Below, piece by piece: positions 17,172 through 57,560 of a stretch of 64,000 nucleotides of DNA. The first letter of the stretch is position 1. Every line of letters begins with the position of its first letter. A program made the position numbers and the translations under genes. The notes below the pieces were generated by a model. The model ran no database searches, was not told the DNA's origin, and worked only from the letters and a program-made list of their open reading frames with translations. The stretch comes from Vicinamibacteria bacterium (GTDB lineage: Bacteria; Acidobacteriota; Vicinamibacteria; Marinacidobacterales; Marinacidobacteraceae): the NCBI GenBank assembly GCA_965115855.1, contig OZ220470.1:975385-1039384 (forward strand), in the 5' to 3' direction.

Positions 17172-17334
17172 GGTTTTCTTTCGCGCCCCCGCAACCCGCA
17201 TCCGAAGGCCCGCCAGACACGAACGGATTCAACGGGGCCATCCGAAATGTATCGCACGACGCAATTTCGAGTGACCGCGACCAGCTGTCTGCAAAGGACG
17301 GCGCAAGAATCGGACGACTCCGATTCGTTCGGAC

Positions 17335-18491: not shown

Positions 18492-19295
18492 ATGACAAAC
18501 ATCCACCAGATCTTCGCAACCGCGCTTGGCCTCATCGAACCATGGTTCGTCGAAAGCGTGAAGTTTGTCGAACCTGACCGCAAGCTGATCATCCGAGTCG
18601 ACTTCCAGCGTGGCGCCCGCTTTCCTCACAAGGACCATGAAGGTACACACCCCATCCATGACACCAGGACCAAGTGCTATCGCCACCTCAACTTCTTCCA
18701 GTATAAATGTGAAGTGGTCGCAAGGGTTCCGAGGGTCCGTCTGCCCGACGGACGGGTCGCGCTGGTCACCACGCCCTGGACGGGTCAGGTCTCCGGATTC
18801 ACTGCACTCTTCGAAGCGTTGGTGATCGTCATGAGTCGGGAAATGCCCTTCGCCGCAGTCGCACGGTTGAACAAGGTTTCCCCACACCGGGTCCAAGCCA
18901 TCTGCAACCACTACGTGGAACTCGCCTCCGCTGAGGACGACCAGGGCGCCGTTCGCGCCGTCACCATCGACGAGACCTCCCGGGCCCGGGGGCACGACTA
19001 TGTCACCGTTGCCGCCGACGCCCGCAAACGCCGGGTGCTGTTTGTCGGAGAGGGCCGGGGGGCCGACACGGTCGGGCAATTCGCCCGGAATCTGGTGATG
19101 CGGGGTGGCGCCCCCGAAGCGATCCAGTTCGTCTCGATCGACATGTCCCCCGCTTTCATAAAGGGGGTTGCGAAGCATTTGCCCCATGCCCGGATCACCT
19201 TCGACAAGTTCCATGTCGTCGCCCATGCCTCGAGGGCCCTCGACGAGACCAGACGCCTCGAGCAGCGAGTGGAGCCGGGGATCAAGGGCATGCGC
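18492..19295 (+). pseudogene. ISL3-family transposase, N-terminal two thirds. It is interrupted by the IS256-family insertion.
   Basis: Zn-finger/HTH N-terminus and DDE core of ISL3 transposases. The reading frame changes to IS256 terminal sequence after ..EPGIKGMRG. Confidence 0.8.
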
Positions 19296-20781: not shown

Positions 20782-20783
20782 GC

Positions 20784-21218
20784 ATGCGCTGGACCTTGCT
20801 CAAGAATCCGGCACACCTCAGCCGCAACCAACGCTCCGCTCTCAACGCACTGATCGCACAGGCCGCGGGCAAGCGCACCACTCGATCCTGGCAGTACCGG
20901 GAGCAACTCCGGGCCATCCTCAACCGCAAACAGGTCCATGTCATGCGGGCCATGCTCCAACAGTGGTGCACCAGTGTGAATCGATCCCGGATCGAACCCA
21001 TGAAAGCCGTAGCCCGGATGATCCGAAGACACTTCGACGGCATCACCGCGTGGGCCCAAACCCGCCAGACCAACGGGTTCATCGAAGCACTCAATGGCCT
21101 CTTCCAATCCGCCAAACGGAAAGCCAGGGGCTATCGTTCCTTCCGTACCATCCGCACCGTTTTCTTTCTCATTGCCGGAAAACTCGACTTCTCCAAGCTC
21201 AACCCTTACCTCGCATAA
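20784..21218 (+). pseudogene. ISL3-family transposase, C-terminal fragment.
   Basis: MRWTLLKNPAHLSRNQ...FIEALNGLFQSAKRKARGYRSFRTIRTVFFLIAGKLDF is the conserved ISL3 C-terminus. Confidence 0.8.
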
Positions 21219-21619
21219 CCCACTCGAAATTCAAAAGAGCCCAAAAAACCGCATCGGAAACTGGTCCGGTGCGCGTTCGTTATGACCCGGTTCTCATGGA
21301 TGGTGCGGTGGCCCACCGACCGGGTCACCACCGGAACGGCGCGTTTCCGCCTGGGGTCTTCCCATCAAAAACCCTCGACTCCCTTGGGCGCAATTCCCGG
21401 CGCGTCGCAAGAATCGGATCATCTCCTTTCCCCTTCCGGGGAGGGTGACCATGCCGGACGCGGCGCCTTGATCGGTCGCGTTGCCGATCAGGGACCGTAT
21501 GTTTCGGGTGGCGCCCATCGAACCATGTGATTCTGCGTGACATTTCCGCTATGAAAGCAGCGGCGACTGTTCCTGATCGCAACAATGAGCGAGCCGGGGC
21601 GTCGGTCTTCGGGGTCGGT

Positions 21620-21913
21620 TCAGGGCCAGCGTCCGCGGGTGGACGGCTTGAGGATCTGCCCCGAGCTGTCCATCACTCCCACGGTCTTGCCCTCGGTGTA
21701 CTCCCGGGCAAGCGGGATGTCCCGGTCGTTGGCGCAGGCGATGTATACCGGCCCGCGATAGCCCCGGAGCCTTCCGGCGGCGGTGTCCATGGTGCGTGCA
21801 GTCTCAACGTTGATCGTCAGCTCACCGGTCCGGATATCGGGACCCCGGAACCGGTTGTACTTGACACCGAGGCGGGCGGCCAGCGCCCGAGCCACCTGAA
21901 CCCTGGTCGCCAC
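21620..21913 (-). CDS. Hypothetical 97-aa protein. It lies 17 nt downstream of the glycosidase-like gene and is probably co-transcribed with it.
   Basis: High GC3 codon bias consistent with genuine coding. No recognised family. Confidence 0.35.
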   Translation of the reverse strand: MATRVQVARALAARLGVKYNRFRGPDIRTGELTINVETARTMDTAAGRLRGYRGPVYIACANDRDIPLAREYTEGKTVGVMDSSGQILKPSTRGRWP

Positions 21914-21930
21914 CTTGGCCGTCCTTCCGG

Positions 21931-24921
21931 TCAGCGGGAGGCCACTCCGGCGGCCGCCATGCGTTCGAGCAGGTCGTCGAGCTGGGCGCGAAGCTCCCCG
22001 TAGCGCTCCCGGGCGTCCGCTCCGGGCGGCTGGTCGGCGGTGTCGAGGTTCCCGGCGAGATAGCGGATCTGGTCGCGGAGCATCGGCCGCGAATACCGGA
22101 TCGGGCGGGTAATGAGCTCCTCGTGCATGGCGCGGACCTCGGCATCACCGCTCCCCAGCGCCGCCTTCAGATGGGCGGCCGCCTCGTTGGCCTCGCTCAG
22201 GGCGTCCCGGGCGAGGAGGGCGAGCGCGACCTGTTCCCGGACCTGCTCGGCGGTAACCCAGCCTTCCCGAGTCACCCTCGGGTCCATCCGCAGACGGAAA
22301 TCACGGGTTGCGCGGAAGTCGCCGGCAGCAACCTCGACCGTATAGCGGCCGGGAGCCGCCAGGACACCACGGCCCGACGGGACGCCACTCTCATCCCGGG
22401 CGCCCTCGTGGCGCATGTCCCAGATAAAGCGGTGGATTCCCGCGCTGGTGGGCACGGTGGGTGTTCCCCGGGTGAAGGGTCCGGGCGCGCGCATCCCCTG
22501 CCCGGTCCCGGAGCGGGTTCCGGCCCCGTCGCTGCGGAAGCTCCGCACCACCTCGCCGGCCTCATCCCGAACCGTGATGGAGGCGTCCTCCACGTCCGCC
22601 GGCACGCGCCAGGTGAAACGGGGTCCGGGCGTCGGGTATTCGGGATCGGCCGGCGAGGCCATGCCACCGAAGCCGCCCGAAGTGCGCAAGCGGATCGCGT
22701 CGCGCACCGGAAACAGATGGGCGCCAGGCCCCGGGCTCTCGTGGAGCGGGGTCAGGTCGTCGAGGATCCAGAACCCCCGTCCCATCGTCGAGAGCACGAG
22801 GTCCTGCCGGATCACCTTGACGTCGGTGATCGGCGTCACCGGCAGGTTCTGCTGGAACGGGGCCCAGCTGGCGCCGTCGTCGAAGGAGACGAACATCCCC
22901 CACTCGCTGCCGAGATAAAGCAGCCCCTCCCGGTCCGGGTCCTCGCGCACCACCCGCACCGGATGGTCGTTCGGCACCCCGTTGGTCCCGTCGGTGATCC
23001 GGGTCCAGGTGGCGCCGTAGTCGGTGGTCTTGTACGCATGGGGGGTGAAGTCGCCGAGCTGGTAACGCAGGATCGCCGCGTAGGCCTTCGCCGGATCGTG
23101 CGGCGAGACCTCGATGTTCTGCACCCGTCCGTAGGGGCCGATCCCCGGCGGGGTCACCTCGGTCCAGCTCTGCCCACCGTCCCGGGTTACATGGATCGGC
23201 CCGTCGTTGGCGCCGGCCCACAGGACACCCTCCTCGTGGGGGGATTCCTGAACGTCGTAGAGCACCGCGAAGTGCTCCTCGCCGGTGACATCGAGCGTGA
23301 TCGGATCTCCGGAAACCACCTGGGTCTCCTCGGTGAAGGCGGTGAGATCGGGAGAGATGGTGCGCCAGGTCCTTCCGCCGTTCTCGGTCACATGCACGTA
23401 TTGTGAGGCGTGGTAGACCCGGTTCGGGTCGTGCGGCGAGACATGGATCGGAACCGTGCGCTGGAAGCGGTACCCAAGGTCCTTCGGGTTGTGCCCGTAG
23501 ATGTTCCAGAATCCGACGTAGTACTGCTCCTCCTGCCCGGTCCGGGTGTTGTAAAGGCCGAAGCGCCCCTTGCAGTTGGCGTAGACCACATCCGGGTCGC
23601 CGGGCTTCGGGACCACCGGGCCGGTCTCGCACCCACCGATCGCCTCCCAGTGCGCGGTGGGCCCGCCGGGACGGTAGTGCGACGGATAGCTCGGCACCGA
23701 GATCGTGGAGTTGTCCTGTTGTCCGGCGTAGAGCCGGTACGGGAAGTCGTCGCTCACGTCCACCTGGTACAGCTCGGCGGTGGGCTGGTTCTCCTGGGTG
23801 GACCAGGTCTCGCCGCCGTCGAGGGTGACGTTCGCGCCACCATCGTTGGCCTGGATCTGGATGTCGGGATTGTCCGGATTGATCCACAGGTCATGGTTGT
23901 CGCCATGGGGAGTGAATTTCCGCTCCCAGTTCACGCCGCCATCGGTGGACTTCCAGTAGCCCTCGGCCATCCCCCAGAGCGTGTCCGGGTCGGTCGGGTG
24001 GGCATGCAGGTTGGTGTAGTAGAAGGGCCGATTCCGGATCGGCTGGAAGTCGGTCACCTGCCGCCAGCTGTCGCCTTCGTCGTCCGAGCGATACACCCCG
24101 CCGTCGTTCCCGGGGGCCTCGATGAGCACATAGACCCGGGAGGGGTCCGCCGCCGAGACGGCGAGGTCGGACTTGCCGCGCAGGCCGGTGGGGAGCCCGT
24201 TCTCCAGCTTCTCCCAGGTCTCCCCGCCGTCCCGGGAACGGTGGACGCCGCCTTCCCTGCCCCCCGACCGAATGGTCCACGGCTTCCGTTCGGCCTCCCA
24301 GCTGGACGCATAGATGGTCTCGGGGTCGCCCGGCTTGAATTCGAGGTCCACGGCTCCGGTCTGCTCGGAAATGAAGAGCACCCGATCCCAGGAACCGCCG
24401 CCGTCGGTGGTCTTGTAGACACCGCGCTCCGGGTTGGCGATGAAGGGGTTGCCGATCGCCGCCACCCAAGCGGTGTCCGGATCCTCCGGATGGATCAGCA
24501 CCGCCCCGCTGTTTCCGGTGTTCCCGAGGCCGAGGTGCCGCCACGACTTCCCGGCATCATCGGAGCGGTACACCCCCTTGCCGATGATGACATTGCTGCG
24601 CAGGCCGTCGGATCCGGTGGAGACGTACACGATGTCGGGGTTGCTCCCGGCAACCGCGATGGCCCCGATCGACGGGCTGGCGAACGTCCCGTCGGAAACC
24701 GGATGCCAATTGTGCCCGTAGTCGGTCGTCTTGAAGACTCCACCCCCGGTCGCCCCCATATAGAAGGTTCCGGGGTGCGCGCGGTGGCCGGCGACCGCGG
24801 TCACCCGGCCGCCGCGCGAGGGACCGACATAGCGGTACCGCATGGCGTCCCGAAGGTCCGATTCCGGCTGGGCGCCCGCCGGAAGGGCGAGCAGGACAAG
24901 AAACGGCAGCAGCTTGCGCAT
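21931..24921 (-). CDS. Secreted BNR/Asp-box repeat protein of the sortilin/VPS10 (GH74-like) beta-propeller type. It is a putative glycoside hydrolase.
   Basis: Signal peptide MRKLLPFLVLLALPAGAQP. Numerous S/T-x-D-x-G-x-T/S-W Asp-box repeats (YRSDDAGKSW, YKTTDGGGSW, HRSRDGGETW, YRSDDEGDSW, WKSTDGGVNW, TLDGGETW, VTENGGRTW, VTRDGGQSW, YKTTDYGATW, VSFDDGASW). Confidence 0.7.
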   Translation of the reverse strand: MRKLLPFLVLLALPAGAQPESDLRDAMRYRYVGPSRGGRVTAVAGHRAHPGTFYMGATGGGVFKTTDYGHNWHPVSDGTFASPSIGAIAVAGSNPDIVYVSTGSDGLRSNVIIGKGVYRSDDAGKSWRHLGLGNTGNSGAVLIHPEDPDTAWVAAIGNPFIANPERGVYKTTDGGGSWDRVLFISEQTGAVDLEFKPGDPETIYASSWEAERKPWTIRSGGREGGVHRSRDGGETWEKLENGLPTGLRGKSDLAVSAADPSRVYVLIEAPGNDGGVYRSDDEGDSWRQVTDFQPIRNRPFYYTNLHAHPTDPDTLWGMAEGYWKSTDGGVNWERKFTPHGDNHDLWINPDNPDIQIQANDGGANVTLDGGETWSTQENQPTAELYQVDVSDDFPYRLYAGQQDNSTISVPSYPSHYRPGGPTAHWEAIGGCETGPVVPKPGDPDVVYANCKGRFGLYNTRTGQEEQYYVGFWNIYGHNPKDLGYRFQRTVPIHVSPHDPNRVYHASQYVHVTENGGRTWRTISPDLTAFTEETQVVSGDPITLDVTGEEHFAVLYDVQESPHEEGVLWAGANDGPIHVTRDGGQSWTEVTPPGIGPYGRVQNIEVSPHDPAKAYAAILRYQLGDFTPHAYKTTDYGATWTRITDGTNGVPNDHPVRVVREDPDREGLLYLGSEWGMFVSFDDGASWAPFQQNLPVTPITDVKVIRQDLVLSTMGRGFWILDDLTPLHESPGPGAHLFPVRDAIRLRTSGGFGGMASPADPEYPTPGPRFTWRVPADVEDASITVRDEAGEVVRSFRSDGAGTRSGTGQGMRAPGPFTRGTPTVPTSAGIHRFIWDMRHEGARDESGVPSGRGVLAAPGRYTVEVAAGDFRATRDFRLRMDPRVTREGWVTAEQVREQVALALLARDALSEANEAAAHLKAALGSGDAEVRAMHEELITRPIRYSRPMLRDQIRYLAGNLDTADQPPGADARERYGELRAQLDDLLERMAAAGVASR

Positions 24922-29513: not shown

Positions 29514-32500
29514 CTATCCGCCGCTCCCGTCGTTTTCGGCGACCGTGACCGTGACGCTGTCAATCGTCACCGAGTCATACCCGCCGCCGCTCGCCCCGTG
29601 CGTCAACACCACGGCTGGATCCGCTGTCGCGTCCTCGTCCTCGTCCGCCGAAACCGTCACCATCTGCGGCGCCCCGTAGTTCGTGCTCGTGAAGGTCAGA
29701 CTCGCCGGAACAACGCGGACGTCGCCGGAGGCCCCAGCCACTGTCACCGTCACATCACCGCCCGCAGGCCGCGAATCCAGATGCACCGTATAACTCCCGC
29801 TGCCGCCTTCGGCCACTGTCAGCGCGGAATCCGAAACCGTCACCCCGGCCGTGTCGTCATCCATGATCGTGCCAGTGGCTTCGAGCCTCTTCTTCCCGCC
29901 CTCGAAGACCACGCGCCTGTCGCTCGTACGGATGTTGTTCAGGCGCAGGGTGAACGTCTCGTCGTCCTCATCCACCTCATCGCCCAGAACCCGCACGGTC
30001 ACCATCTTGGTCAGATCTCGACCGGTAGCATTGGCCGCGAACACCAGATTCTGGTCCCGGAACCCGACAAAGTCCCGCCCAGCGCCTCGCCCCCCCTTGG
30101 CCGTGCCCGGCCGAGCCCACGCCGTCGCCCGAATCTCCACATCGTGGCTCGGGGAACCACTCAACGTAACGGTGAATTCCATGTCGGTCTCGCCCGAATC
30201 CCCCTCGTCAACGGTCACATCCGAAACCGAAATCTCATGGCCGGTCGACTTGGCGGCATCGTCATCCATGATCGTCCCGATGACTTCGAGCCTCTTCCTT
30301 CCGTTCTCGAAGGCCACTAGCGGGTCGCCCGTTCGGATGTTGTTCAAACGCAGGACAAGCGTCTCGTCGTTTTCTTCCACCTCGTCACCCAACACCTTGA
30401 CCGTCACTATTTTGGTCAGGTCCGCCCCGGTCGCATTCGCTGGAAACACCAGATTCCGATCTCGGAACCCGATGAAATCCCGACCGGCCCCTTTGCCACC
30501 CTTGGCGATATCAATGGCGTCCCTGCTCCATGCCGTCGCCCGAATCTCCACATCGTGGCTCGGCGAGTCACTCAGCGTGACCGTGAAGTCCATGTTCGTT
30601 TCGCCCGAATCCCCTTCGTCAACTGTCACATCAGACGCCGATATCAGCGGCCGAATCGGCTCCGGCTCCGGCCCCGGAACCGGCGCGCGAATCAGCACTT
30701 CCAGTGTGTCGGACACCTCACTGTAGCCGTTAGGATTCACGGCGCGGATTTGGATTCCAAGCGTTTCGCCCTGACTTAGTGTGAAATTTCGATAATCGAT
30801 ATAGCACGGGAGTTCGGTGTCAAGGTGCAAAAGATCGGACCAAGGACTCCACTGACCCTGCCAGCTACGATGTCTGATTCGACTTTGCCACTTAGTAATG
30901 CTGGAGTCCTTCGGATCATCCCAATTGACTGTAACACAATCGGGCAAATGTGCATATCCTTGAAACGCTATAAGACCCGTCGGTTTCGCTGGTACAGCAT
31001 TGCCATACTCGATTACCGACACCACAACAGAGTCAATCGTTATCGAGTCATAGCCACCTCCGCTGGCGCTATGCGTCAGCGTCACATCGGGATCCGTAGT
31101 GGTGTCCATGTCGTATTTCGCGAAAACCGTCACAACTTGTTCGGTGGTCCAATTCCCCCGCGTAAAGGTGAGTGATGATTTATCTACTGTCACATCCCCT
31201 GATTCACCACCCACGGTGATCGTCACGGTCCCTGACGGCGCTTGATTCAATTTTATCGTGTAGCTTTCGCTCCCACCCTCGCGCACCGTCAATTCGGACT
31301 CCGAGACCGTCACTCCCGCGGGAGTCGCTCGCGGCGTCGCCATCACTACAACAGAAGGTTCGCTAAATCCATTGGCGTTCACTGCGCGTACTTGATATTT
31401 ATAAGAAGTTCCAGGAGGACCTCCTCTCTCGTTCCAATATGTCTTGAATTGACCTGATGTTTCCACATATATCTCGGACCACTCATCGCATAATTCAAAT
31501 ATCTCATTGAAACACGCTAAGTCATCCCTTTTCTCCCAACGAATAATACTGGAATCCATGGGGTCATCCCAAGTCAGAACGATTCGTCTGCCGTGTACTG
31601 AGGCCTGAACGCCGGTCGGCTTGGCCGGCACAGCGCTCACTATATCGGAGACCGGGCCGCGCCCATTGGCATTTACTGCCCGCACTTGGAATTCGTAATA
31701 TTCTACATTTTGGAGGTCATGACTGTTGATGATCAATATATCTATCTTGCCGCTACTTCGTTGCCAAGACTCCCAATCCGACCCTTGAATTCTGAGCCGA
31801 TACTCCATAGCAACAATGTTCGAATTGTCCATAGAATCATACTTCAATCTGATATGCCATCCCATTATGGTTGCCGTTAGACGTGTTGGCTTTGCCGGCA
31901 CTCCTCCAGATGACTCCATGGGGACCGCAGTCACAACATCGGAAGCCAAACCGGCACCGTGAATATTCACCGCACGTACTTGAAATACGTAGACAATTCC
32001 GTTCGTCAGATCAATAACCGTGTGATTGCCATGGGAACCGGATTCGCGGATGTCCTTCCATCTCTTGTTTGCCAAACCCTCTTCCTGTGGCGCACTCCGC
32101 ACTTGCCATCCAACGATATTGGCATCGAATAAACCCTCGCCGATGATCGGGCCACTCCAGAACAAACCAACGCGCGAATCACCGGCTTCCGCCGTAAAAT
32201 GCAACGGCTTGCCAGGAGTCGGCGTCCGTGTAGGCACTGCCGAGACTACGTCCGACGCCGGACCAACACCGTAAATGTTCCTGGCACGCACTTGAAATAC
32301 ATAGCTTGTTCCGTTCGTCAGGCCGGTAACGTTGTAGTTGCTGGGAGCGTAATCGGTACGATCAAAATTCAAATCTTGCCAGCTTTTGCTTGTCACGCCT
32401 TCCGCTTGAGACGCCATCCGAATCTGCCACGTTGCATCTCTTTCTCTTAAAATGGGGTTCCAGGTCAACACTACCGAACCATCACGTGGCGCGGCGGTAA

Positions 32501-33755
32501 ATCCTGTCGGCTTGGACGGTGGCTTTCCTTCTGACAGAAATGGCGTGGCGGCAACAACATCCGAGGCCACGCCCGCACCGTTGGCGTTCACAGCGCGTAC
32601 CTGAAAAACAAGCAGCATACCGACTTCCCTACTGAAATCGTAGGGGGCTGTGCCGTAAGATGTTATATCGGACCTGACATTCCACCATTCCTGAGAACTC
32701 AAATTTTCGTTCTCCTGAAATGCCCACCTCATCTGCCATCCGGTTATGCTGGGATCCTTTGGGTCGTCCCAAGTCACCACTATAGTTCCACCCCGGCTGG
32801 CGGTAACAGCGACGCCCTTCGGCTTGCCAGGAGTTGGCGCAAGCATCGGGGTCACGATCACTTCGTCCGAAGCGGCACTTGAAGTATTACCTTTCATCGC
32901 CCGAATTTTGAATCCGTATGCCGTACCGTTCGCCAAGTTGGTTATCGTGTGACTGGACGTGGATGCACTCGATCCCGCAATGTCGGTCCAATCGCCGTAA
33001 TTGCTGTTTCCGGACTTCATTTGATACTGCCAACCAGTGATGCTGGCATTTACCGATTCGTCCCAGTTCAGGGTTGTCTGTCGATCTCCTGCGACGGCGA
33101 CGAGACCCATAGGAGCGCCGGGAGCGCCGTCGTCGTCGACGATAGTCAAGGTGATGGTTCCGGCGGTCCACATCGTGGCTTGGACCGAGTTGTTCGGAAT
33201 GGCCTTGAATGTGAGAGTCTCGTCACGTTCGTCTTCCGCGTCACCGAGGACACTGAATTGGAACGTGGCAGTCCTTTCGCCGCTGCTGATCGTGGCAACA
33301 GCGCCATTGGGCCAACACATGTCGGCACCCGAGGGAGCCGGACTGCTGCAGCCACTGGCGGTCATGGTCTCGTTGAATGTTCCCGTGCTCTCAGCAGCAA
33401 CTGGTTCCATCTTGACATCAAAACTGCCGTCTGCCGCGTCGCCAAGCATTACGGTGATGGCGATATCGGTCCTTTCCGAGTCCCCCTCCGTGAACGACGT
33501 TATCCCAGATGAAAGCGTGATGATCTTGCCCGCGATACCCTGAGCCGCGATGGCGACCGGCCCGTCGGGAGATGCTCCCGGTGCAGAAGGAGTGGCCGGA
33601 GCGGGAGTGACACGAGGCGATGACGGCGTAGTGGGATTGGAAGACCCGCAACCGCTCACTCCGAGCAGGACGGCGATGCCAAGCGCAATTCCTACATAGC
33701 CAAGATGCCGATCAAATCGAACGCAAGCGCTAACGGGAGTAGTATGGATTTTCAT
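29514..33755 (-). CDS. Giant surface lipoprotein (about 1413 aa, paralog B). It has a Calx-beta-like N-terminal domain, at least 8 fibronectin type III domains, two Calx-beta domains and a conserved C-terminal beta-domain. Its central third has only about 50% GC.
   Basis: Start at MKIHTTPVSA with lipobox LLGVSGCGSS. Repeated FN3 signatures (W..R.......W......YxFQVRAVN). Calx-beta motifs (VTVDEGDSGETxMxFTVTLS..DETLVLRLNNIRT). N- and C-terminal blocks are near-identical in architecture to the 15258..17171 protein. Confidence 0.8.
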   Translation of the reverse strand: MKIHTTPVSACVRFDRHLGYVGIALGIAVLLGVSGCGSSNPTTPSSPRVTPAPATPSAPGASPDGPVAIAAQGIAGKIITLSSGITSFTEGDSERTDIAITVMLGDAADGSFDVKMEPVAAESTGTFNETMTASGCSSPAPSGADMCWPNGAVATISSGERTATFQFSVLGDAEDERDETLTFKAIPNNSVQATMWTAGTITLTIVDDDGAPGAPMGLVAVAGDRQTTLNWDESVNASITGWQYQMKSGNSNYGDWTDIAGSSASTSSHTITNLANGTAYGFKIRAMKGNTSSAASDEVIVTPMLAPTPGKPKGVAVTASRGGTIVVTWDDPKDPSITGWQMRWAFQENENLSSQEWWNVRSDITSYGTAPYDFSREVGMLLVFQVRAVNANGAGVASDVVAATPFLSEGKPPSKPTGFTAAPRDGSVVLTWNPILRERDATWQIRMASQAEGVTSKSWQDLNFDRTDYAPSNYNVTGLTNGTSYVFQVRARNIYGVGPASDVVSAVPTRTPTPGKPLHFTAEAGDSRVGLFWSGPIIGEGLFDANIVGWQVRSAPQEEGLANKRWKDIRESGSHGNHTVIDLTNGIVYVFQVRAVNIHGAGLASDVVTAVPMESSGGVPAKPTRLTATIMGWHIRLKYDSMDNSNIVAMEYRLRIQGSDWESWQRSSGKIDILIINSHDLQNVEYYEFQVRAVNANGRGPVSDIVSAVPAKPTGVQASVHGRRIVLTWDDPMDSSIIRWEKRDDLACFNEIFELCDEWSEIYVETSGQFKTYWNERGGPPGTSYKYQVRAVNANGFSEPSVVVMATPRATPAGVTVSESELTVREGGSESYTIKLNQAPSGTVTITVGGESGDVTVDKSSLTFTRGNWTTEQVVTVFAKYDMDTTTDPDVTLTHSASGGGYDSITIDSVVVSVIEYGNAVPAKPTGLIAFQGYAHLPDCVTVNWDDPKDSSITKWQSRIRHRSWQGQWSPWSDLLHLDTELPCYIDYRNFTLSQGETLGIQIRAVNPNGYSEVSDTLEVLIRAPVPGPEPEPIRPLISASDVTVDEGDSGETNMDFTVTLSDSPSHDVEIRATAWSRDAIDIAKGGKGAGRDFIGFRDRNLVFPANATGADLTKIVTVKVLGDEVEENDETLVLRLNNIRTGDPLVAFENGRKRLEVIGTIMDDDAAKSTGHEISVSDVTVDEGDSGETDMEFTVTLSGSPSHDVEIRATAWARPGTAKGGRGAGRDFVGFRDQNLVFAANATGRDLTKMVTVRVLGDEVDEDDETFTLRLNNIRTSDRRVVFEGGKKRLEATGTIMDDDTAGVTVSDSALTVAEGGSGSYTVHLDSRPAGGDVTVTVAGASGDVRVVPASLTFTSTNYGAPQMVTVSADEDEDATADPAVVLTHGASGGGYDSVTIDSVTVTVAENDGSGG

Positions 33756-34295
33756 AGATAGAGATGGCCTTTCGGGCGGAACTTCGGGAGGAGAGTGCAG
33801 TATCGGCGAGTGGATTCCGGCGATAAAACCAAGGAATTCCAACGCATTGAGTGTAGTCACCCAGAATGTCAGTTCTGACATTAATCGCATCATTTTTCGG
33901 CGCACGCGCTGCGAACAAAAGGTGACAACCGCTCGATTGGTGGATCGGCGCAGTGGTCGCGCCTGGTCCACGCAGGCGCCAGTGATCGCGGTGTTCACCG
34001 ATTCCGACTTTTCGGTTATCCCAAGTACGACGAACCGTGATCTCCGGAAACTCGGCGCCCGGACGGTCGAGGGGGGCACTACCGGATCGGTTCGACCGAA
34101 CGAGCTCGATTCATGGCTTGCGGACGCGGGCGAAAGCCCCGGTTCCCCCGGGCCGAACACTCTGCTCTTCGGGCGGCGCGGTAGCGGCGATGCGACCTCA
34201 ACTACCGCGGTCCGTCGTTGGGGGTCGCGGAGAGCGCCACCCCAGGGACGGCGGCGCGCTAGCTAACGGTTACCGCTTCCGCTTGGTGTGATAAT

Positions 34296-49957: not shown

Positions 49958-51643
<1,686 letters not shown>

Positions 51644-51663
51644 GTCCGACCGTCACCTCCACG

Positions 51664-51698
51664 GCCCCCCGGGCGGCGACGTCCGGGGGGCTTTTTGC
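51664..51698 (+). terminator. Rho-independent terminator after groEL: a GC-rich hairpin (CCCCCGGG..CCCGGGGGG) followed by a T run.
   Basis: Seen directly in the sequence. Confidence 0.5.
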
Positions 51699-51764
51699 GA
51701 ACGCGCCGCCTACAATTACCGGGGGAGGCGCCCTCCCCGGCTCGACTGCCCAATCGGCGATCCG

Positions 51765-52991
51765 ATGAACAAGCACGCCGTGCTCCGCCATCTCCGGCTC
51801 GGCGAGGATGGACGCGTGGAGTTCAAGGAAGCAAGGGTAAGCGGAACCAGGGTCAAGGCGCCGAAACGCGATGATCTCGCCGACGAACTCGCCGCGTTCG
51901 CCAACGCCGACGGCGGCTTCGTCCTGCTGGGTGTCGAGGACCGGCCGATCAAGGTGGTCGGCGTGCCCCGGCCCGGCCTCGACGCCCTCGAGGAGCTGGT
52001 TCGCGGAATTTGCAACGACGCCATCCAGCCGCCTCTCCCGGCCGACATCCGGCGCATGGAACTCCCTGATGCGGCAGGCGTGGCCCAACCGGTGCTGCTG
52101 GTCGGCGTGCCGCGGAGCCTGTTCGTCCATGCGAGCCGGGGACGCTATCTTCGACGCATCGGAAGCTCGAAGCGGAGGCTCGATCCGATGGCGCTCCAGC
52201 GCCTGATGATGCTTCGCACGCAGTCCGGCGTGATTTCCTTCGATGAATCGCCGGTTCCCAGGACGACTCCGGATGACCTCGACCGGTCCGCCGCCGAGCG
52301 ATGCGTCAGCGGGGAAGCCGACTTCGACCTGGCGGTGCGCAAGCTGGCCCTGATCGTCAAGGACCCTGACGGGGCCGACCGGCTCTCGGTCGCGGGCGCT
52401 CTGATGTGCACGCCGGAACCGCAGCAATGGCTGCCGGCTGCCTATATCCAGGCCGTCTTCTATGTGGGCAACCGCATCGACCGCGACTATCAGACCGATG
52501 CCGCCGACCTCGGCGGACCGCTGGACGTGCAGATCCGGGAGGCGTGCCACTTCGTCCGCCGCAACATGCGAACCGCCGCGGTCAAGGACCTCGGACGCAT
52601 CGACGTGCCGCAATACAGCGAGCGGGCGGTTTTCGAGGCGGTGGTGAACGCGGTGGCGCACCGCGACTACTCGATGGGCAGCAGCCGCATCCGCCTGCAC
52701 CTGTTCGCGGACCGGCTGGAACTGATGGTTCCCGGAGAACTCGCCAACTCGTTGACCCCGGACGCCCTCCATCTGCGCCAGGCATCCCGGAACCAATTGA
52801 TCGCGTCGCTTCTCGCCCGGTTCCCTGGTCCGGGCGCGGTCGGCAGACAGAAGCTCATGGATCAGCGTGGCGACGGCGTTCCCCGCATTCGGGAGGAAAC
52901 CCGGACCCTCAGCGGTCGCCTCCCGGAGTACGCGATCGTGGCGCCCGGCGAGCTGCGCCTCGTGATTCCCGCCGCTAACCCGTTCGGGTAA
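51765..52991 (+). CDS. AlbA_2 (divergent AAA / Schlafen-like) domain fused to a HATPase_c_4 domain. It is a putative ATP-dependent DNA-binding regulator of the class often mis-annotated as RecG-like.
   Basis: N-terminal EFKEA...ELAAFANADGGFVLLGVED pattern, typical of AlbA_2/Schlafen core. C-terminal NAVAHRDY, a HATPase_c_4 hallmark. About 408 aa. Confidence 0.65.
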   Translation: MNKHAVLRHLRLGEDGRVEFKEARVSGTRVKAPKRDDLADELAAFANADGGFVLLGVEDRPIKVVGVPRPGLDALEELVRGICNDAIQPPLPADIRRMELPDAAGVAQPVLLVGVPRSLFVHASRGRYLRRIGSSKRRLDPMALQRLMMLRTQSGVISFDESPVPRTTPDDLDRSAAERCVSGEADFDLAVRKLALIVKDPDGADRLSVAGALMCTPEPQQWLPAAYIQAVFYVGNRIDRDYQTDAADLGGPLDVQIREACHFVRRNMRTAAVKDLGRIDVPQYSERAVFEAVVNAVAHRDYSMGSSRIRLHLFADRLELMVPGELANSLTPDALHLRQASRNQLIASLLARFPGPGAVGRQKLMDQRGDGVPRIREETRTLSGRLPEYAIVAPGELRLVIPAANPFG

Positions 52992-53289
52992 CGATCCAGG
53001 CCCCGAGGCCCGGTCCACCGGACGGGCGCGCTCCGGACGGATGGCGTGTTTGCTTCGGTCGTCCTGTGATCCGAATCCACGCGCTGGGCGCAACGGTCGG
53101 GTCGGAGCATCTCCCGACGGTCATCCACCGGGCCCGCTCGCGCGCGTCGAGGGCGCTAGTTGCCGGACGACGCCGAAACCAATTTCCAAGTCCTCTCGCT
53201 GGCCGGCGAAGCGCCGTCCGCCGGGATCCGTGGTCGGCGCTCCGTTCGGAATAGGCCGCGTTCGGCGCCCCGTGGGGCAGAATGCGCCG

Positions 53290-54630
53290 ATGCGCTTCGA
53301 CGGCGTCGGGAAGACCTTGGACCGACTTCTCGCCTGGGCGGACGAAAACGGGTGGTCCACCCGGCACGCGGAGCTCGCGGAAGCGCACCTGGCGGGATCG
53401 ACCAGGGCGCTCGGACTGTCCCCGGAGGAGATCATGCGCCGCCTCGGCCCGGCCGCGAGGCCGGTTGAACTCTTCGTACTGGATGCGTATCTCGCGGCTC
53501 GGTTCGGCAAGGTCGGAGACAAGAACGTGGTGGATGCCTATCTCGAAAAACGGGCGTGGAGGGAGAAACCGGGGGCCGTGGCGTTCCTCCGCGAGGTCCG
53601 CGACTCCGACCCTGCGCTCTACCAGGTGGAGCGGCGCGCTCCGGGGCGCCTGACCGTGACCGACCTCCTTCACGATCGGGATTCGATCCACGTGCGGGAC
53701 TGGAACGCTTCCGAAGTGTTGCGACCGGGACATTGCTTCGCCGGTCGGATCATCCACATCGGCAAGACGCTCGGCTTCTCGCTCGGCCTGCTGGCGCTTT
53801 CTCCCCGGGCGGTCGGACAATGCGTCGAGCGGATGAAGGGGGCGATCCGGGATGTCCACCGCCATTCCCCTGAATCCGTCCGGTCTCCTGGCGACGCGAT
53901 CGACGATTCGACGTTCATGCAGCTGGTGCTCAGAAGCGGCCTCGGCAGCGTCGCCTTCGTCGATGCGTTCATCCAGCATGCCTTGACCCCGCCGAAGCCC
54001 CCCGAGCTGGTCAACCACGACGGGGAAACCCTCGCTCCGACCACGATCCGTTTTCCCGTCCGGGGAAGCGAGGACGATGTGATCGAAGTGCTCGACGATA
54101 TGAGCGAACTCGAGCGCCACGAGGGACCGCACTGGGTTTGGCCCGGTACCAGCTCCGAGACCGACTACGAAGGGAAGACAGTCGAAACCAGAGTCGTGCT
54201 GGGGCGCGCGGAAATCGTGGACGGGGCGCTGACCCTCCAAGCGAACTCCGCTGAACGCGGCGAGCGCGGGCGGGAGCTGCTGGCCGGACGGCTGGGCAAG
54301 CTGGTGGGCACTCCCCTCACCTCCCACCAGACCCTCGAGGAGACGCGGAAGCAAGTCAAGCAGAAACCTCCTCCGGAGACCTCACCGGAGACCGACGCGC
54401 TCATCCTCGACCAGATCAGGGAGCACTACCGGCGCACGCTCGACGAGTCCGTTCCCGCGCTCGGAAACCGCACTCCCCGGAAGGCGGCGCGGACCCGGCA
54501 GGGGCGCGCCCGGGTAGAGGAGTGGATCCGGGGGATCGAAATCGCGGAAGCGCGGCGCGCCCACGCCGGCGGTCCGCCGGCGATGGACGCCGGCTGGATC
54601 CGCGAGGAGCTGAAGCTCCCGAAGCCGTAG
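53290..54630 (+). CDS. Hypothetical 446-aa protein with no recognisable family. It is the middle gene of the putative defence island.
   Basis: Coding-like GC3 bias and a defined start (MRFDGVGKTL). The upstream part of the tracked ORF is junk. Confidence 0.5.
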   Translation: MRFDGVGKTLDRLLAWADENGWSTRHAELAEAHLAGSTRALGLSPEEIMRRLGPAARPVELFVLDAYLAARFGKVGDKNVVDAYLEKRAWREKPGAVAFLREVRDSDPALYQVERRAPGRLTVTDLLHDRDSIHVRDWNASEVLRPGHCFAGRIIHIGKTLGFSLGLLALSPRAVGQCVERMKGAIRDVHRHSPESVRSPGDAIDDSTFMQLVLRSGLGSVAFVDAFIQHALTPPKPPELVNHDGETLAPTTIRFPVRGSEDDVIEVLDDMSELERHEGPHWVWPGTSSETDYEGKTVETRVVLGRAEIVDGALTLQANSAERGERGRELLAGRLGKLVGTPLTSHQTLEETRKQVKQKPPPETSPETDALILDQIREHYRRTLDESVPALGNRTPRKAARTRQGRARVEEWIRGIEIAEARRAHAGGPPAMDAGWIREELKLPKP

Positions 54631-55586
54631 CTTCCCGAAACCGGGGAGGGAATCAGGCGCGTACTGGTGGACGGCGTCGACAAGGCGACGGCAGATATTT
54701 TCCGGGTGAACCGCCGAACCATCGGGGGAAAATGCCACTTGGAGGCGCCGGCGCGGGCCCTCCGGCGGACGCCCGGAGGAGTCCTCAATCGCCTCGGACC
54801 GGAAGAGGGCCGGACACTCCCACTCATTTCATCCGGAAGACGTTCCTCGCAACCCGTTTCGGCGCGGACAAGCACGACACCGTGGTGAACGCATGCAACC
54901 CGTTCTTGCTGCTTGCCTGCGGTTACGGCGTCCGGGGGGACCTCAAGAAAATCCGCGGCGCAACGCTTTCGCCCTGCCAGGCAAGGGTAACCGACCACGA
55001 AAAACACCTGACGGTGATCGATCTCCTTCGGGGGGACGATCCGATTCGGGCGGAGGACCGCCAACTCGCCAGTTCCGTCCTCGTGGGGGGATTATTTGGC
55101 CGGCCGGCTCTTCCCTTGCGGCGGCTGGCCCGGTTTCGCTTCCACCGTGCTGCCTTTTCCCGGGAACCGGAAGGTGGAGTGCATGGAGCTTGTCTCCGTC
55201 ACCATCGTGCATCGCCGCGACGTCGCGCACCGAACCACCGGAAAGTGGCTCCGCTTGCCGTTTCTGATGAGGCTGCTTCTTTCGAGTGGAATCGGAAGCG
55301 GCATGTTCGCCTGGAAGTCCACCCGGCAGGTTCTGGAGCCGCGGGGAAGGACGGCGTATCGTGGCCCGAGCGGGAGGAGTTCCTGCTCGAGCAGAACGTG
55401 GCGCGCCTCTGCCGCGCTGGGACCGAGTCGCCGCTGGCGCCGGAAGACCGCGCGCGAAGGAAGGAATCGCGGCGGAGACCGTCGCTCCGGGATTCACTGA
55501 AGCCCCGGGGAGACTGATCCGGAGCAGGGAAGCGCGCGGCGCGTCAAGGCGCTGACGCAAGGTATCCTCGACTTGCTGCGCCGCCC

Positions 55587-57311
55587 ATGCTGACCCGCCT
55601 GACCATCCGCAACTTCAAGCGATTCAAGGAAGCCGTCATCGACCTCGACGACCCGGTTCTCCTCATCGGCCCCAACAACTCGGGGAAGACAACGCTTCTC
55701 CAGGCGCTGGCGCTCTGGGACCTCGGCATGCGGCGGTGGCGCGAGAAACGGGAGATCGGCGAAGCTTCGGCCCGGCGCCCCGGCGTGGCGATCGGCCGGG
55801 GCGACCTGATTACGGTCCCCCTCCGGGACGCGAAGCACCTCTGGCGGAATCGGCGCGTTCGGCAAGGCATCCCGGTCGAAGGCCGGATGCGAACCGACAA
55901 CATTCACATCGAGATCGTGGTCGAGGGCCTGTCGCGGGGACAGGACTGGAAGGCCGGGCTGGAGTTCGACTACGCCAACGAGGAATCGTTCCATTGCCGA
56001 CCGCTCCGCACCCGGCCGGACGGAAGCGAACGGATGCCGATCCCCGGGGAAGCGGCCTCGGTGCGGGTGGCGTATCTGCCCCCGATGTCGGGACTCGCGG
56101 CCCACGAGACCCGCCTCGAGCCGGGCGCGATTGCCGTCCGCATGGGAGAGGGACGAACCGCCGAGGTGTTGCGAAACCTGTGCCTTCGGATCAACACCGA
56201 GTTGCCGGAGGAGTGGGAGCGCCTCGAACGCCGGATCAGGGACCGGTTCGGCGTCCGCCTCGATCCTCCGAAGCATGTTGCCGAGCGCGGCGAGATCACC
56301 ATGTCCTACCGGGAGCACAAGGAGCGGCTGGACCTCACTGCCGCCGGCCGGGGCCTCCAGCAGACCATGCTGCTGCTGGCGCACCTCGTTCTGAACCCGC
56401 GGTCGGTCCTGATCCTCGATGAACCGGACGCCCACCTGGAAGTGATCCGCCAGCGGGAGACGTGCCAGCTTCTGCGAGAGACGGCGTCGGAGACCGGCGC
56501 CCAGATCATCGCCGCGAGCCACTCGGAAGTGCTGCTGCATGAGTTCGCAGCCAAGCGGGACGCCATCGTCGCGCTTCTCGGCGATCCCCACCGGGTCGAC
56601 AGCAAGAGCCAGGTCCTCAAGGCCCTCCGGGACATCGGATACGCCGACTACGAGCAAGCCCGCGGCGCGGGCTTCGTTCTCTATCTCGAGGGAACCACCG
56701 ACCTCGACATCCTGAGGGCCTTCGCTCGGCGCCTCGGACACGATGCGGCATCAACGGCGCTTGACGGCGCCTTCTTCAAACCCGTCGGCAACCAGCCCCA
56801 GGAGGCGATCCGGCACTTCCACGGACTGCGCGAAGCCGTCCCGGCGCTGCGGGGATGCGCGCTCTTCGACAAACTCGAAAAGGCACTGCCAGACATGCAC
56901 GGGATTCCGGGAGTGATGTGGAAACGCCGCGAGATCGAGAACTATCTGTGCTCCGACGCCACGCTGCTGGCCTGGGCCGAAGCGCCACGCACGCCCGGAG
57001 AGAAGCGCGACCTCTTCTCGCCGCGTCCGTTCTCTCCGACCGAGCGCCGGGACGCGATGGAAGAGGCGATCCGTAAGGTCCGGGAAGCGGTGAGTTTGCT
57101 CCGGCCCGGTACCGACCCGGCGTTGTCCAGGGTCAAGGCGGGCAACGAATACCTGGAGCCGGTATTCCGCGCTTACTTCGACCGGTTGGGCGAGAAGAAC
57201 CGGATGGGGAAGAACCGCTTTCACGAGCTGGTTCCCCACATCCCGGATGGGGATATGGACCCGGAAGTCGGAGACAAGCTGGACTTCATCACCGCCGCGG
57301 CAAACGACTGA
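55587..57311 (+). CDS. OLD-family ABC-type ATPase fused to a C-terminal TOPRIM/DUF4435-like domain. It resembles class 1 OLD nucleases and fused PARIS AriA-AriB proteins.
   Basis: Walker A LLIGPNNSGKTTLLQAL. A long insertion follows. Walker B is VLILDEPDAHLE and the H-loop is IAASHSEV. C-terminal motif FVLYLEGTTDLDILRAF, which is a TOPRIM-type conserved Glu. Confidence 0.7.
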   Translation: MLTRLTIRNFKRFKEAVIDLDDPVLLIGPNNSGKTTLLQALALWDLGMRRWREKREIGEASARRPGVAIGRGDLITVPLRDAKHLWRNRRVRQGIPVEGRMRTDNIHIEIVVEGLSRGQDWKAGLEFDYANEESFHCRPLRTRPDGSERMPIPGEAASVRVAYLPPMSGLAAHETRLEPGAIAVRMGEGRTAEVLRNLCLRINTELPEEWERLERRIRDRFGVRLDPPKHVAERGEITMSYREHKERLDLTAAGRGLQQTMLLLAHLVLNPRSVLILDEPDAHLEVIRQRETCQLLRETASETGAQIIAASHSEVLLHEFAAKRDAIVALLGDPHRVDSKSQVLKALRDIGYADYEQARGAGFVLYLEGTTDLDILRAFARRLGHDAASTALDGAFFKPVGNQPQEAIRHFHGLREAVPALRGCALFDKLEKALPDMHGIPGVMWKRREIENYLCSDATLLAWAEAPRTPGEKRDLFSPRPFSPTERRDAMEEAIRKVREAVSLLRPGTDPALSRVKAGNEYLEPVFRAYFDRLGEKNRMGKNRFHELVPHIPDGDMDPEVGDKLDFITAAAND

Positions 57312-57560
57312 CACGAGCTCCCGGTCCAATGACATGAGTTCAGCCGGCAATGACATGAGCTCCCGGCCGTTGGGCGTACGAAGCGCGGCATCCCCGGTCA
57401 GAACGGGGAATCCGCCTCGGAATTCCACCAGAAAGACACTGATATTGACCGCTTGGCGCCGGTTCCGGACTGCGCCAATGACACGAGCTCCGGCTCAAGG
57501 AACACGAGCTCGGCCCGGAATTGACACCAGATCGACCGGGCCCCGGGTGGGCTCCTGTCA
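57300..57560. repeat. Five or six direct copies of an about 21-bp motif CAATGACAYGAGCTCCSGGYC. The first copy overlaps the stop of the OLD-family gene.
   Basis: Direct reading of the sequence. It lies in the convergent intergenic region between the OLD-family gene and the PadR-associated membrane protein gene. Confidence 0.5.

Follow-up and report, generated by a model that had tools for sequence, protein, structure and literature searches.

The gene at positions 55,587–57,311 of the window, a 64,000-nucleotide stretch of a Vicinamibacteria bacterium contig, probably encodes a self-contained OLD-superfamily protein whose single chain carries both an ABC-type ATPase and a Toprim module of the AriB type, with a variant active site and a nuclease that may be gated in cis, and which forms, with its relatives, a distinct and very conserved clade beside fused PARIS and U5. 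The open reading frame lies on the + strand, as do all features described below, and runs from ATG to stop; the ORF list and translation bear out the single polypeptide of 574 aa proposed by the first-pass annotation. Its codon usage is typical of a genuine gene (GC3 0.83 and GC2 0.46, in a host genome of 68% GC), and NCBI/ENA lists an identical protein, encoded on a 3.0-Mb contig (P0001). Length is about 575 aa everywhere in the family, with thousands of full-length homologs spanning 571–603 aa. The Walker A, Walker B, H-loop and C-terminal block quoted by the annotation were all found and their coordinates checked. Its estimate of about 260 aa between Walker A and Walker B was too large, as K34 and D278 are 243 aa apart.

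A complete AAA_15/AAA_21-type ABC ATPase occupies the N-terminal 330 aa. Pfam matched the 574-aa protein with AAA_15 (7e-20) and AAA_21 (2e-18), both above cut-off, and PADLOC, ranked by score, placed AriA (PDLC02979; 1.4e-22, 79 bits) first of 130 matches, followed by NsnB, mad3, AbiLi, AriAB, GajA and Old (44 bits). We counted residue conservation in 56 diverse members of the window protein's family (hereafter the window family; 35–55% identity). The P-loop, LIGPNNSGKTT (aa 26–36; 55,662–55,694), has G28, G33 and K34 in 56/56 members, and Pfam AAA_15, SMC_N and AAA_23 match aa 1–44. An ABC signature-like motif, TAAGRGLQQT (GRGxQQ; 56,337–56,366), keeps G254 in 53/56 and G256 and Q259 in 55/56. 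Walker B, the catalytic Glu and the D-loop lie together in VLILDEPDAHLE (aa 274–285; 56,406–56,441; D278, E279, D281, H283 and E285), where E279, P280 and H283 are invariant (56/56), D278 is kept in 54/56 and Pfam AAA_21 matches aa 236–317. The H-loop, AASHSEV (aa 309–315; 56,511–56,531), has H312 and S313 in all 56. Judged by these motifs, the ATPase carries every catalytic element: Walker A, the signature-like GRGxQQ, Walker B with its catalytic Glu, the D-loop and the H-loop. This is the N-terminal ABC ATPase expected of the OLD superfamily.

An insertion of about 205 aa interrupts the ATPase (aa 45–250; 55,719–56,336); AlphaFold secondary structure gives it a β-rich subdomain (aa 94–140) and a helical hairpin (aa 191–221). 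By analogy, we infer that it is located like the dimerisation domain of OLD and the coiled-coil insert of AriA (PMC7049728, PMC11464382). Within it is an extremely conserved segment, RVAYLPPMSGLAAHETRLEPGAIAVRMGEGRTAEVLRNLCL (aa 160–200; 56,064–56,186), with near-invariant columns at P165–L170, E174 and G187–C199 and an AlphaFold pLDDT of 27–34. This segment is probably a Q-loop or a flexible regulatory element, and a motif resembling it also occurs in the AriAB-like bridge protein introduced below and in U5 proteins.

The C-terminal 235 aa match no sequence model in Pfam, PADLOC, PHROGs or the PDB. Pfam at E values up to 10 gave a chance match to OHCU_decarbox as its sole result, PHROGs gave none, and for 16 C-terminal sequences PADLOC returned only isolated marginal matches (GajA 0.007, AriAB 0.011). 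In PDB HMM searches, none of three C-terminal profiles (A2, A4 and A5) reached AriB, GajA or OLD. A C-terminal profile run against 1.84 billion representatives found only its own family and fragments, with no standalone AriB-like relative among the 150 matches listed. The first-pass annotation had called the protein an OLD-family ATPase fused to a DUF4435/TOPRIM-like C-terminus; the single polypeptide, the ATPase and the Toprim-like C-terminus stand, whereas neither Pfam DUF4435 (PF14491) nor the PADLOC AriB model matches this region.

The fold is nevertheless predicted with confidence. The domain-only AlphaFold model (pLDDT 91.3, pTM 0.88) has a β-α-β-α-β-β core and a helical bundle, so the C-terminal 200 aa, whose predicted structure the annotation had made decisive, do look Toprim-like. 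The putative Toprim core (aa 360–455; 56,664–56,951) runs β1-α-α-β2-α-β3-β4. The bundle (aa 456–574; 56,952–57,308) has helices at aa 484–505, 518–533, 542–551 and 559–573, the last with invariant E560, L565 and D566. In Foldseek searches with the C-terminal model, AriB chains ranked first and second among 350,542 PDB chains with scores below significance, and BFVD gave no significant match. The link to AriB passes instead through a bridge, the BREX-embedded protein WP_114083283.1 of Nostoc sp. ATCC 53789 plasmid pNsp_c (fused PARIS/AriAB, the single-chain form of OLD 'Class 4'). PADLOC scores the bridge as AriAB at 110.6 bits, and its C-terminus alone as AriAB at 7.6e-12 and AriB at 4e-5. In hhalign, the C-terminal profiles of the window and bridge families aligned over about 200 columns with 94% probability (E 8e-8 to 1e-7), whereas the reversed control gave E 0.46 and the best of 30 column shuffles 0.014. 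At full length, the window protein aligned with the Nostoc protein over aa 1–461 with 99.5% probability. By profile–profile comparison, then, the C-terminal module appears homologous to that of a BREX-embedded protein classified by PADLOC as AriAB.

The window family is large and scattered. It has at least 8,000 database matches, its C-terminal module alone forms 980 clusters at 50% identity, and at least 477 relatives occur among 185,579 species-representative genomes (about 0.3% of species). The first-pass description of such genes as rare therefore holds per genome and fails for family size and spread. Members occur in about 20 phyla with no taxonomic signal. Because protein identity is equal within phyla (62.1%) and between phyla (61.6%), ancient vertical inheritance is ruled out as the source of the family's conservation.

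Around the gene lie ordinary metabolic and housekeeping chromosomal genes. All-versus-all clustering of flanking ORFs in 86 loci found no recurrent neighbour, and a bulk Pfam scan of the 133 nearest neighbours returned 162 Pfam families, none in more than four loci; together these rule out a conserved partner gene or operon. No helicase was found in the window flanks or among neighbours of homologs, which agrees with the annotation's remark that a UvrD-like GajB-type partner is missing beside the gene. No reverse transcriptase occurs among neighbours, and Rfam families are missing from the window, which removes a retron or ncRNA association. A mobile cassette was rejected, as conserved sequence is limited to the first 30 coding bases and to the flanks of syntenic close relatives, and there are no convincing inverted repeats around the gene that would mark a cassette with terminal repeats. 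A defence islet with the upstream genes is not supported: the 529-aa ORF there belongs to a rare PF25948/SEC-C family without a PADLOC match. The sole defence-flavoured neighbour is a Schlafen/AlbA_2 protein, whose adjacency to homologs is not conserved. We conclude that this is a lone gene, strongly constrained and spreading horizontally.

A cellular, non-defence role for the same architecture is the alternative that survives best, and we regard it as rather unlikely. The protein would then act on host DNA or RNA, nicking or processing it during replication, repair, chromosome handling or RNA turnover; Cran1, the archaeal Class 5 OLD protein that acts in cell-cycle progression, sets a precedent for a non-defence OLD (PMC12796447). 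The ordinary chromosomal neighbourhoods, free of defence and mobile-element genes, are consistent with such a role, as are synteny within lineages (loci L090/L092 and L002–L005, and L001/L012/L045, which share upstream DNA), the lack of any family copy in 50,697 phage and 72,556 plasmid records, and an unusually high mean column identity of 73% in alignment A1 of the family. Against this, the nearest characterised relatives are defence proteins, the distribution is patchy and the protein tree ignores taxonomy, with cross-phylum pairs up to 79% identical and 78% identity between the copy of a Bathyarchaeota MAG and one from Chloroflexota. A taxonomy-ignoring tree combined with a patchy distribution marks an accessory gene that moves horizontally, and not a core function.

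In the C-terminal module, β1 and the first acidic motif lie together in FVLYLEGTTDL (aa 363–373; 56,673–56,705), with E368 in 54/56 members and D372 in 56/56. By analogy, E368 is a candidate ligand of metal A and D372 (E+4) a candidate ligand of metal B, with the same spacing as E26/D30 of AriB and E377/D381 of TsOLD (PMC11464382, PMC7049728). At β3, in RGCALFDKLE (56,850–56,879), D428 is kept in 53/56 and position 430 is Leu here and L/I/V in most members; in the alignment, D428-x-L430 falls opposite the bridge family's D-x-D, where Toprim domains have their second Asp. The third motif, WKRREIENY after β4 (56,919–56,945), has W445, E449, E451, N452 and Y453 each in 54/56 members, and EIENYL is identical in the bridge family. 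E449 and E451 are further candidates for metal B. E368, D372, D428, E449 and E451 form an acidic cluster at Toprim metal-ligand positions. The annotation had pointed to E and DxD as the acids to check, and all five of these residues are kept, whereas the second Asp of DxD is absent family-wide. The complete two-metal set (E on β1, E/D at +4, DxD on β3 and (S/T/D)xE after β4) is accordingly one acid short, and of the AriB acids E26, D30, D88, E90 and E122 the window family has equivalents for four of five, with a hydrophobic residue (position 430) in place of E90.

Because the DxD is degenerate, catalysis may have been lost from the Toprim-like module, leaving a binding or regulatory domain and the ATPase as effector. 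E. coli YbjD lends this some weight, since its anti-phage phenotypes require the ATPase and its Toprim domain is reported to be dispensable (PMC13261556), as does the family-wide L/I/V in place of the second Asp. We nonetheless judge it improbable: E368, D372, D428, W445, E449, E451, N452 and Y453 are kept in at least 53/56 members, a pattern difficult to account for unless there is a metal or active site, and TsOLD mutants without one metal site still nick DNA (PMC7049728). It is very improbable that the C-terminal 235 aa are an unrelated α/β domain with Toprim likeness in its motifs only. Such a domain would account for the lack of a significant structural match and of any sequence-model match, but not for the controlled profile–profile homology to an AriAB/AriB-classified module, for AriB taking the first two Foldseek places, or for the order of secondary structure and the acids after β1, β3 and β4, which match the OLD-type Toprim (PMC7049728). 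An ordinary housekeeping ABC ATPase (RecF, SbcC, RecN, ABC-F or a transporter subunit) can be dismissed almost entirely: weak NCBIfam and Pfam matches to RecF, SMC_N, ABC_tran and ABC-F exist, but they cover only the P-loop or Walker B/H-loop regions (aa 1–44 or 255–323) far below curated cut-offs (recF 29 bits against 172, ABC-F 35.8 against 380), with none of the end-to-end RecF or SbcC alignment that the annotation had named as its counter-case, there is no conserved transporter partner, and the C-terminal module is foreign to all of these families.

For the reading that we prefer, a Toprim nuclease gated in cis by its own ATPase, OLD, GajA and PARIS suggest how the protein could work. Dimerised ATPase heads would bind or hydrolyse ATP and, with the 205-aa insertion, sense a trigger; ATPase and insertion would gate the nuclease in cis. 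Once freed from inhibition, the nuclease might cut tRNA, as do AriB and P2 Old (PMC12445682), or nick DNA, as do TsOLD and VcOLD, the latter a single-gene OLD known in defence (PMC12392090). Growth of the infected cell would then stop, or the invader would be eliminated. Replacement of the second DxD Asp by a hydrophobic residue is predicted to alter metal geometry, for example towards a single tightly bound metal, and would therefore favour a restricted activity, such as nicking or cleavage of RNA at specific sites, over processive degradation. It is conceivable, if doubtful, that the clade is a separate OLD-family class: a cis-regulated PARIS-like enzyme whose Toprim site has one acidic ligand fewer, under near-housekeeping constraint, carried by a naked single gene that hops among about 20 bacterial phyla and possibly archaea. 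Its role would then be unlike classical abortive infection, for example to survey or process a nucleic acid common to all cells such as tRNA, much as Cran1 showed a non-defence role for archaeal OLDs.

The OLD family is now central to phage-defence research, and its solitary members are the branch understood least: whether a single OLD gene can defend, what trigger it senses and what substrate it cuts are stated open questions (PMC10568477). The clade offers a compact, extremely conserved single-chain version of PARIS logic; as sensor and effector are joined, gating must lie within the molecule and not in subunit release. The number of metal ligands that a Toprim nuclease requires can be tested directly on its naturally occurring DxD-to-DxΦ change, and the clade's cross-phylum transfer and strong constraint, without mobile-element or defence-island association, fit the usual picture of a defence gene poorly. 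The window-family motifs DEPDAHLE, REIENY, PPMSGL and GEGRTAEV are all missing from Dataset EV1 of the published OLD phylogeny (PMC12796447), so the clade itself is unrepresented there. Pfam and PADLOC likewise do not cover its nuclease half, and defence-annotation pipelines therefore probably label it only 'AAA family ATPase'.

Among known systems, Gabija GajA (Class 2) and retron OLD (Class 3) likewise join an ABC ATPase and a Toprim in one chain, and GajA chains rank second and third in full-length Foldseek searches. The window gene differs in having no adjacent GajB UvrD/PcrA-like helicase, as Gabija has, and no reverse transcriptase or msr/msd ncRNA nearby, as retrons have; in the domain model, its Toprim-like core shows no apparent helical insertion. 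Class 1 OLD (P2 Old, 6P74, Vibrio cholerae OLD and E. coli YbjD) shares the solitary gene without a conserved partner. Its Thermus scotoductus member TsOLD (6P74) is the best PDB match of the full-length protein by both sequence and Foldseek, ahead of GajA; the Foldseek alignments to 6P74 and GajA span the whole chain, whereas sequence likeness to 6P74 is confined to the P-loop and Walker B. In Class 1 enzymes the E/DxD/(S,D)xE set is complete and the ABC signature is degenerate (PMC7049728), in contrast to the degenerate DxD and conserved signature-like motif of the window family. The annotation had offered 'class 1 OLD or fused AriAB-like': the PADLOC scores (AriA 79 bits, Old 44) and the C-terminal homology to an AriAB-classified protein favour the second, short of strict AriAB membership, as the DUF4435 and AriB models do not match and the DxD is incomplete.

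Two-gene PARIS (AriA and AriB; PDB 8UX9, 8V46) has the same ATPase/Toprim pairing, and PADLOC's top-scoring model for the window protein is AriA, its ABC ATPase. PARIS responds to anti-restriction proteins such as Ocr and cleaves tRNA. By motif order and spacing, AriB E26/D30/D88/E90/E122 correspond to window E368/D372/D428/–/E449–E451 (PMC11464382). The window protein lacks an E90 equivalent, a Pfam DUF4435 match and a significant structural match to AriB, and it joins sensor and effector covalently, so that the PARIS mode of activation, in which AriB is released from an AriA hexamer, cannot hold here unchanged. The nearest sequences in the sole family-wide OLD phylogeny published so far are those of the uncharacterised clade U5 (Yang et al. 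2025, PMC12796447, Dataset EV1), at 25–28% identity and E 1e-22 to 2e-42 over about 380 aa, a comparison without the C-termini because sequences in that dataset are truncated to about 400 aa. U5 shares the insert motif PxxSGL...E...G...V(L/I)RNL and LDEPDAHLH with the window family. Fused PARIS, represented by the bridge, resembles the window protein in joining an ABC ATPase (AAA_15/AAA_21) and a probable AriB-type Toprim module in one chain. Common to both families are LDEPDAHL, the β1 motif (V/L)(L/F)(Y/F)LE(G/D), EIENYL and a collinear helical tail, with identity at only about 26%. Opposite the DGD of the bridge, the window family reads D-[RK]-[LIV], and its C-terminus, unlike that of the bridge, is not recognised by PADLOC AriB or AriAB. 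None of its members in the sample examined sits inside a BREX, RM, phage or satellite locus, the settings expected of PARIS and, for BREX, that of the bridge. The bridge family has only 15 database matches, and the window family is far more conserved and widespread.

The 574-aa ORF at 55587–57311 (+ strand), called and translated from ATG to stop, has the codon statistics of a real gene (GC3 0.83, GC2 0.46, in surroundings of 66–72% GC); ORFs overlapping it in other frames have codon statistics that are not gene-like. No Shine-Dalgarno sequence lies ahead of its ATG, and an identical protein, from a 3.0-Mb contig, is already recorded in NCBI/ENA. All the motifs named in the first-pass annotation were present and their coordinates verified: Walker A LIGPNNSGKTT (aa 26–36), Walker B/D-loop VLILDEPDAHLE (aa 274–285), H-loop AASHSEV (aa 309–315) and FVLYLEGTTDL (aa 363–373). 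Walker A and Walker B are separated by 243 aa, not by the approximately 260 aa first proposed.

Pfam searches of aa 1–320 identified AAA_15 (7e-20) and AAA_21 (2e-18), and the P-loop also matched SMC_N and AAA_23. The best PADLOC defence-system model for the protein was AriA of PARIS (1.4e-22), followed by NsnB, mad3, AbiLi, AriAB, GajA and Old. NCBIfam models of housekeeping ABC ATPases (RecF, ABC-F and transporter ATPases) matched the P-loop or the Walker B/H-loop only, far under their cut-offs, and these partial matches rule out the end-to-end alignment with RecF or SbcC that would have refuted the first-pass reading. In an alignment of 56 full-length family members, each 35–55% identical to the 574-aa protein, residues G28, G33, K34, E279, P280, H283, H312 and S313 were invariant, and D278, D281, E285 and the signature-like G254/G256/Q259 were nearly so. 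The ATPase half therefore has all the parts required for nucleotide-dependent head engagement and hydrolysis. Walker A is separated from the signature motif by an insertion of ~205 aa, predicted to form a helical hairpin and a subdomain rich in β-strands. It probably occupies the place of the oligomerisation inserts of OLD and AriA (PMC7049728, PMC11464382). Within it, RVAYLPPMSGLAAHETRLEPGAIAVRMGEGRTAEVLRNLCL (56064–56186, aa 160–200) is among the most conserved stretches of the family, yet has an AlphaFold pLDDT of ~30; it is possibly a mobile regulatory or Q-loop element, and a related motif is present in the AriAB-like protein described below and in proteins of U5, an uncharacterised clade of the published OLD phylogeny.

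The C-terminal module (aa 340–574) was not recognised by Pfam, even at E = 10, by PHROGs, by PADLOC run on 16 family C-termini or by PDB profile searches with three different C-terminal profiles. Against 1.84 billion representative proteins, the C-terminal profile retrieved only 980 clusters. Since essentially all of these have the same 550–615-aa architecture or are fragments of it, the module is a closed family and not a domain that has been shuffled widely. Folded alone with AlphaFold2, it was modelled at high confidence (pLDDT 91.3, pTM 0.88) in the order β1 (362–366), two helices, β2 (395–398), a helix, β3 (421–426), β4 (441–443) and a helical bundle. Near-invariant acids follow β1 directly (E368, then D372 at +4), β3 (D428) and β4 (E449 and E451, together with N452, Y453 and W445). 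This order of elements and placement of acids matches the OLD-type Toprim layout: in TsOLD, E377/D431/D433 serve metal A and D381/S478/E480 serve metal B (PMC7049728), and the AriB acids are E26, D30, D88, E90 and E122 (PMC11464382). D428 corresponds to the leading Asp of the Toprim DxD, and throughout the family a hydrophobic residue has replaced the second Asp.

A link to PARIS came from plasmids. Searched by tblastn, 72,556 plasmids contained no family member but did yield a 26%-identical relative, aligned through residue 456. This 625-aa protein (WP_114083283.1, L086:4001-5878), annotated only as 'AAA family ATPase', comes from plasmid pNsp_c of Nostoc sp. ATCC 53789, where its gene is flanked by pglX and pglZ in a BREX-1 operon, the position at which PARIS is embedded in Salmonella BREX (PMC11341690). 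Its best PADLOC model was AriAB, the fused form of PARIS (110.6 bits), and its C-terminal 295 aa alone matched AriAB (7.6e-12) and AriB (4e-5). Its sequence contains FLEDSD, the canonical DxD motif IRDGDG and ERHEIENYLL; Pfam did not recognise its Toprim half, and its own family is tiny (15 database matches). The full-length profile of our family matched this protein with 99.5% probability over aa 1–461. Because the ATPase could carry that score, we compared the C-termini alone. Against the single Nostoc sequence, a 16-sequence profile gave E = 1.1e-3 and a more diverse 34-sequence profile 5.7e-5; profile against profile, the match reached 94.5% probability (E = 8e-8) over 199 columns that stay collinear from β1 through to the final helix, so that support climbed steadily with profile diversity. 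A second tool reproduced the profile–profile match (94.3%, 9.7e-8), whereas controls gave E = 0.46 for the reversed Nostoc alignment and 0.014 for the best of 30 column-shuffled ones. These comparisons indicate that the module is homologous to the AriAB/AriB-type effector module. In the alignment, 'alfD-[RK]-[LIV]' of our family pairs with 'fvrD-x-D' of the Nostoc protein, which retains the canonical DxD, whereas our family has D-[RK]-[LIV] instead.

Such single-gene proteins had been described as rare, but in sequence space this family is common enough to contradict that: at least 8,000 homolog candidates were found, the best 120 of which are all 571–603 aa and 55–70% identical over their full length. 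GTDB, sampled at one genome per species, contained at least 477 relatives. The best 80 of these, all from MAGs, span ~20 phyla, including Acidobacteriota, Chloroflexota, Alpha- and Gammaproteobacteria, Latescibacterota, Gemmatimonadota, Planctomycetota, Verrucomicrobiota, Nitrospirota, Actinomycetota, Poribacteria and a Bathyarchaeota MAG. Mean pairwise identity was 62.1% within phyla versus 61.6% between them, with cross-phylum pairs of up to 79%, which implies extensive horizontal transfer under strong purifying selection. The copy in a Candidatus Bathyarchaeota MAG (L040:6001-7716) is 78% identical to that of an Anaerolineales MAG (Chloroflexota; L055); either it crossed between domains recently or the contig is bacterial and was mis-binned. 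Some inheritance is locally vertical, as shown by the syntenic loci L090/L092 and L002–L005 and by flanks that only close relatives have in common.

The gene travels alone. Clustering all flanking ORFs of 86 loci revealed no recurrent neighbour. The 133 nearest flanking ORFs matched 162 Pfam families, each in at most 4 loci; they encode transporters, dehydrogenases, methyltransferases and sulfatases, and the commonest families include no integrases, restriction–modification enzymes or helicases. We found no conserved non-coding flank or terminal repeat accompanying the gene, and a search of 50,697 phage records yielded no relative. Annotated examples adjoin ftsZ-ftsA-murB-murC, urease genes, PQQ dehydrogenases and transporters; at L091:9037-14675, an example of a non-defence context, a homolog lies directly beside, and convergent with, an ftsZ-ftsA-ftsQ-murB-murC division and cell-wall cluster.

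In the window, genes for a γ-glutamyltranspeptidase, two M16 peptidases, a prolyl oligopeptidase, GroEL and a Schlafen/AlbA_2–HATPase_c_4 protein, then a PF25948-family ORF, lie upstream of the gene; on its other side it meets, in convergent orientation, an unknown ORF, a fatty-acid desaturase and a PLP enzyme. Its vicinity contains no helicase, reverse transcriptase, tRNA or Rfam element, in agreement with the first-pass view that a GajB-type partner is lacking. The Schlafen/AlbA_2 protein (51435–52991, +), right after GroEL, matches a PADLOC pAgo-associated domain model (4e-19) and is the sole defence-flavoured neighbour; it is not conserved beside homologs. The PF25948 ORF (53041–54630, +) belongs to a rare family (11 database matches), some relatives of which have a SEC-C motif; the source annotation uses a later start, giving 446 aa. 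The ~950 bp from 54630 to 55587 contain no confident gene by GC3. In the spacer at 57305–57530, ahead of the convergent minus-strand ORF, AATGACAYGAGCTC(C) is directly repeated in five to six degenerate copies, of which the first overlaps the TGA stop. Allowing up to two mismatches, TGACACGAGCTCCSGG occurs three times, always in this spacer, and 0 of 100 shuffles reached three matches; the copies may represent a binding site for a protein in repeated form, or else a small repeat element. Elsewhere, 30001–34000 and 16001–22000 have clearly lower GC (0.54–0.56 and 0.62, against a background of 0.68–0.72) and may be horizontally acquired.

The protein joins a catalytically complete ABC ATPase to a Toprim-homologous module in which five conserved acids lie at metal-ligand positions and the second DxD acid is missing; its genetics are solitary, horizontally mobile and strongly constrained. 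The architectural assignment, a single-chain ABC ATPase with a Toprim-like module, is very likely correct. An ATP-gated nuclease working in conflict or defence is the reading we favour by a small margin over even chances, by analogy with OLD, GajA and PARIS. The ATPase heads and their insertion would then act as a sensor or gate, and nucleotide state or a trigger would lift inhibition of the nuclease in cis; the subunit release of two-gene PARIS is impossible in a fused protein. It might cut tRNA, the target of AriB and P2 Old (PMC12409363, PMC12445682), or nick DNA in the manner of VcOLD and TsOLD (PMC12392090, PMC7049728). With the second DxD ligand absent, cleavage is predicted to be restricted and not processive; the nickase VcOLD has a substitution at a metal-B ligand (PMC12392090). 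A Cran1-type role in the cell is rather unlikely; in its favour are contexts that are not those of defence genes, the lack of copies in the phage and plasmid records searched, and the strong conservation. That the Toprim module is catalytically dead and the protein functions as an ATPase only, as suggested for YbjD (PMC13261556), seems improbable.

OLD proteins are classified by context as solitary (class 1), Gabija (2), retron (3), PARIS (4) and archaeal Cran1 (5), and a recent phylogeny adds eleven uncharacterised clades, U1–U11 (PMC10568477, PMC12796447). None of the sequences in its Dataset EV1 (PMC12796447) contains the signature motifs of our family. The nearest entries belong to U5 (25–28% identity, E down to 2e-42 over ~380 aa, with a shared insert motif); a U6 member was far more distant. 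The clade thus lies beside U5 and fused PARIS, unrepresented in the published tree, which drew on RefSeq; the family is known almost only from MAGs. Within the OLD superfamily it forms a large, unannotated clade of single-chain proteins that is unusually conserved and whose Toprim active site is a variant one. The first-pass interpretation was largely right in proposing a single-chain ATPase–Toprim protein, but under current models the protein belongs strictly to neither class 1 OLD nor PARIS: by its solitary context it is class 1-like, whereas by sequence it is nearer to the PARIS branch.
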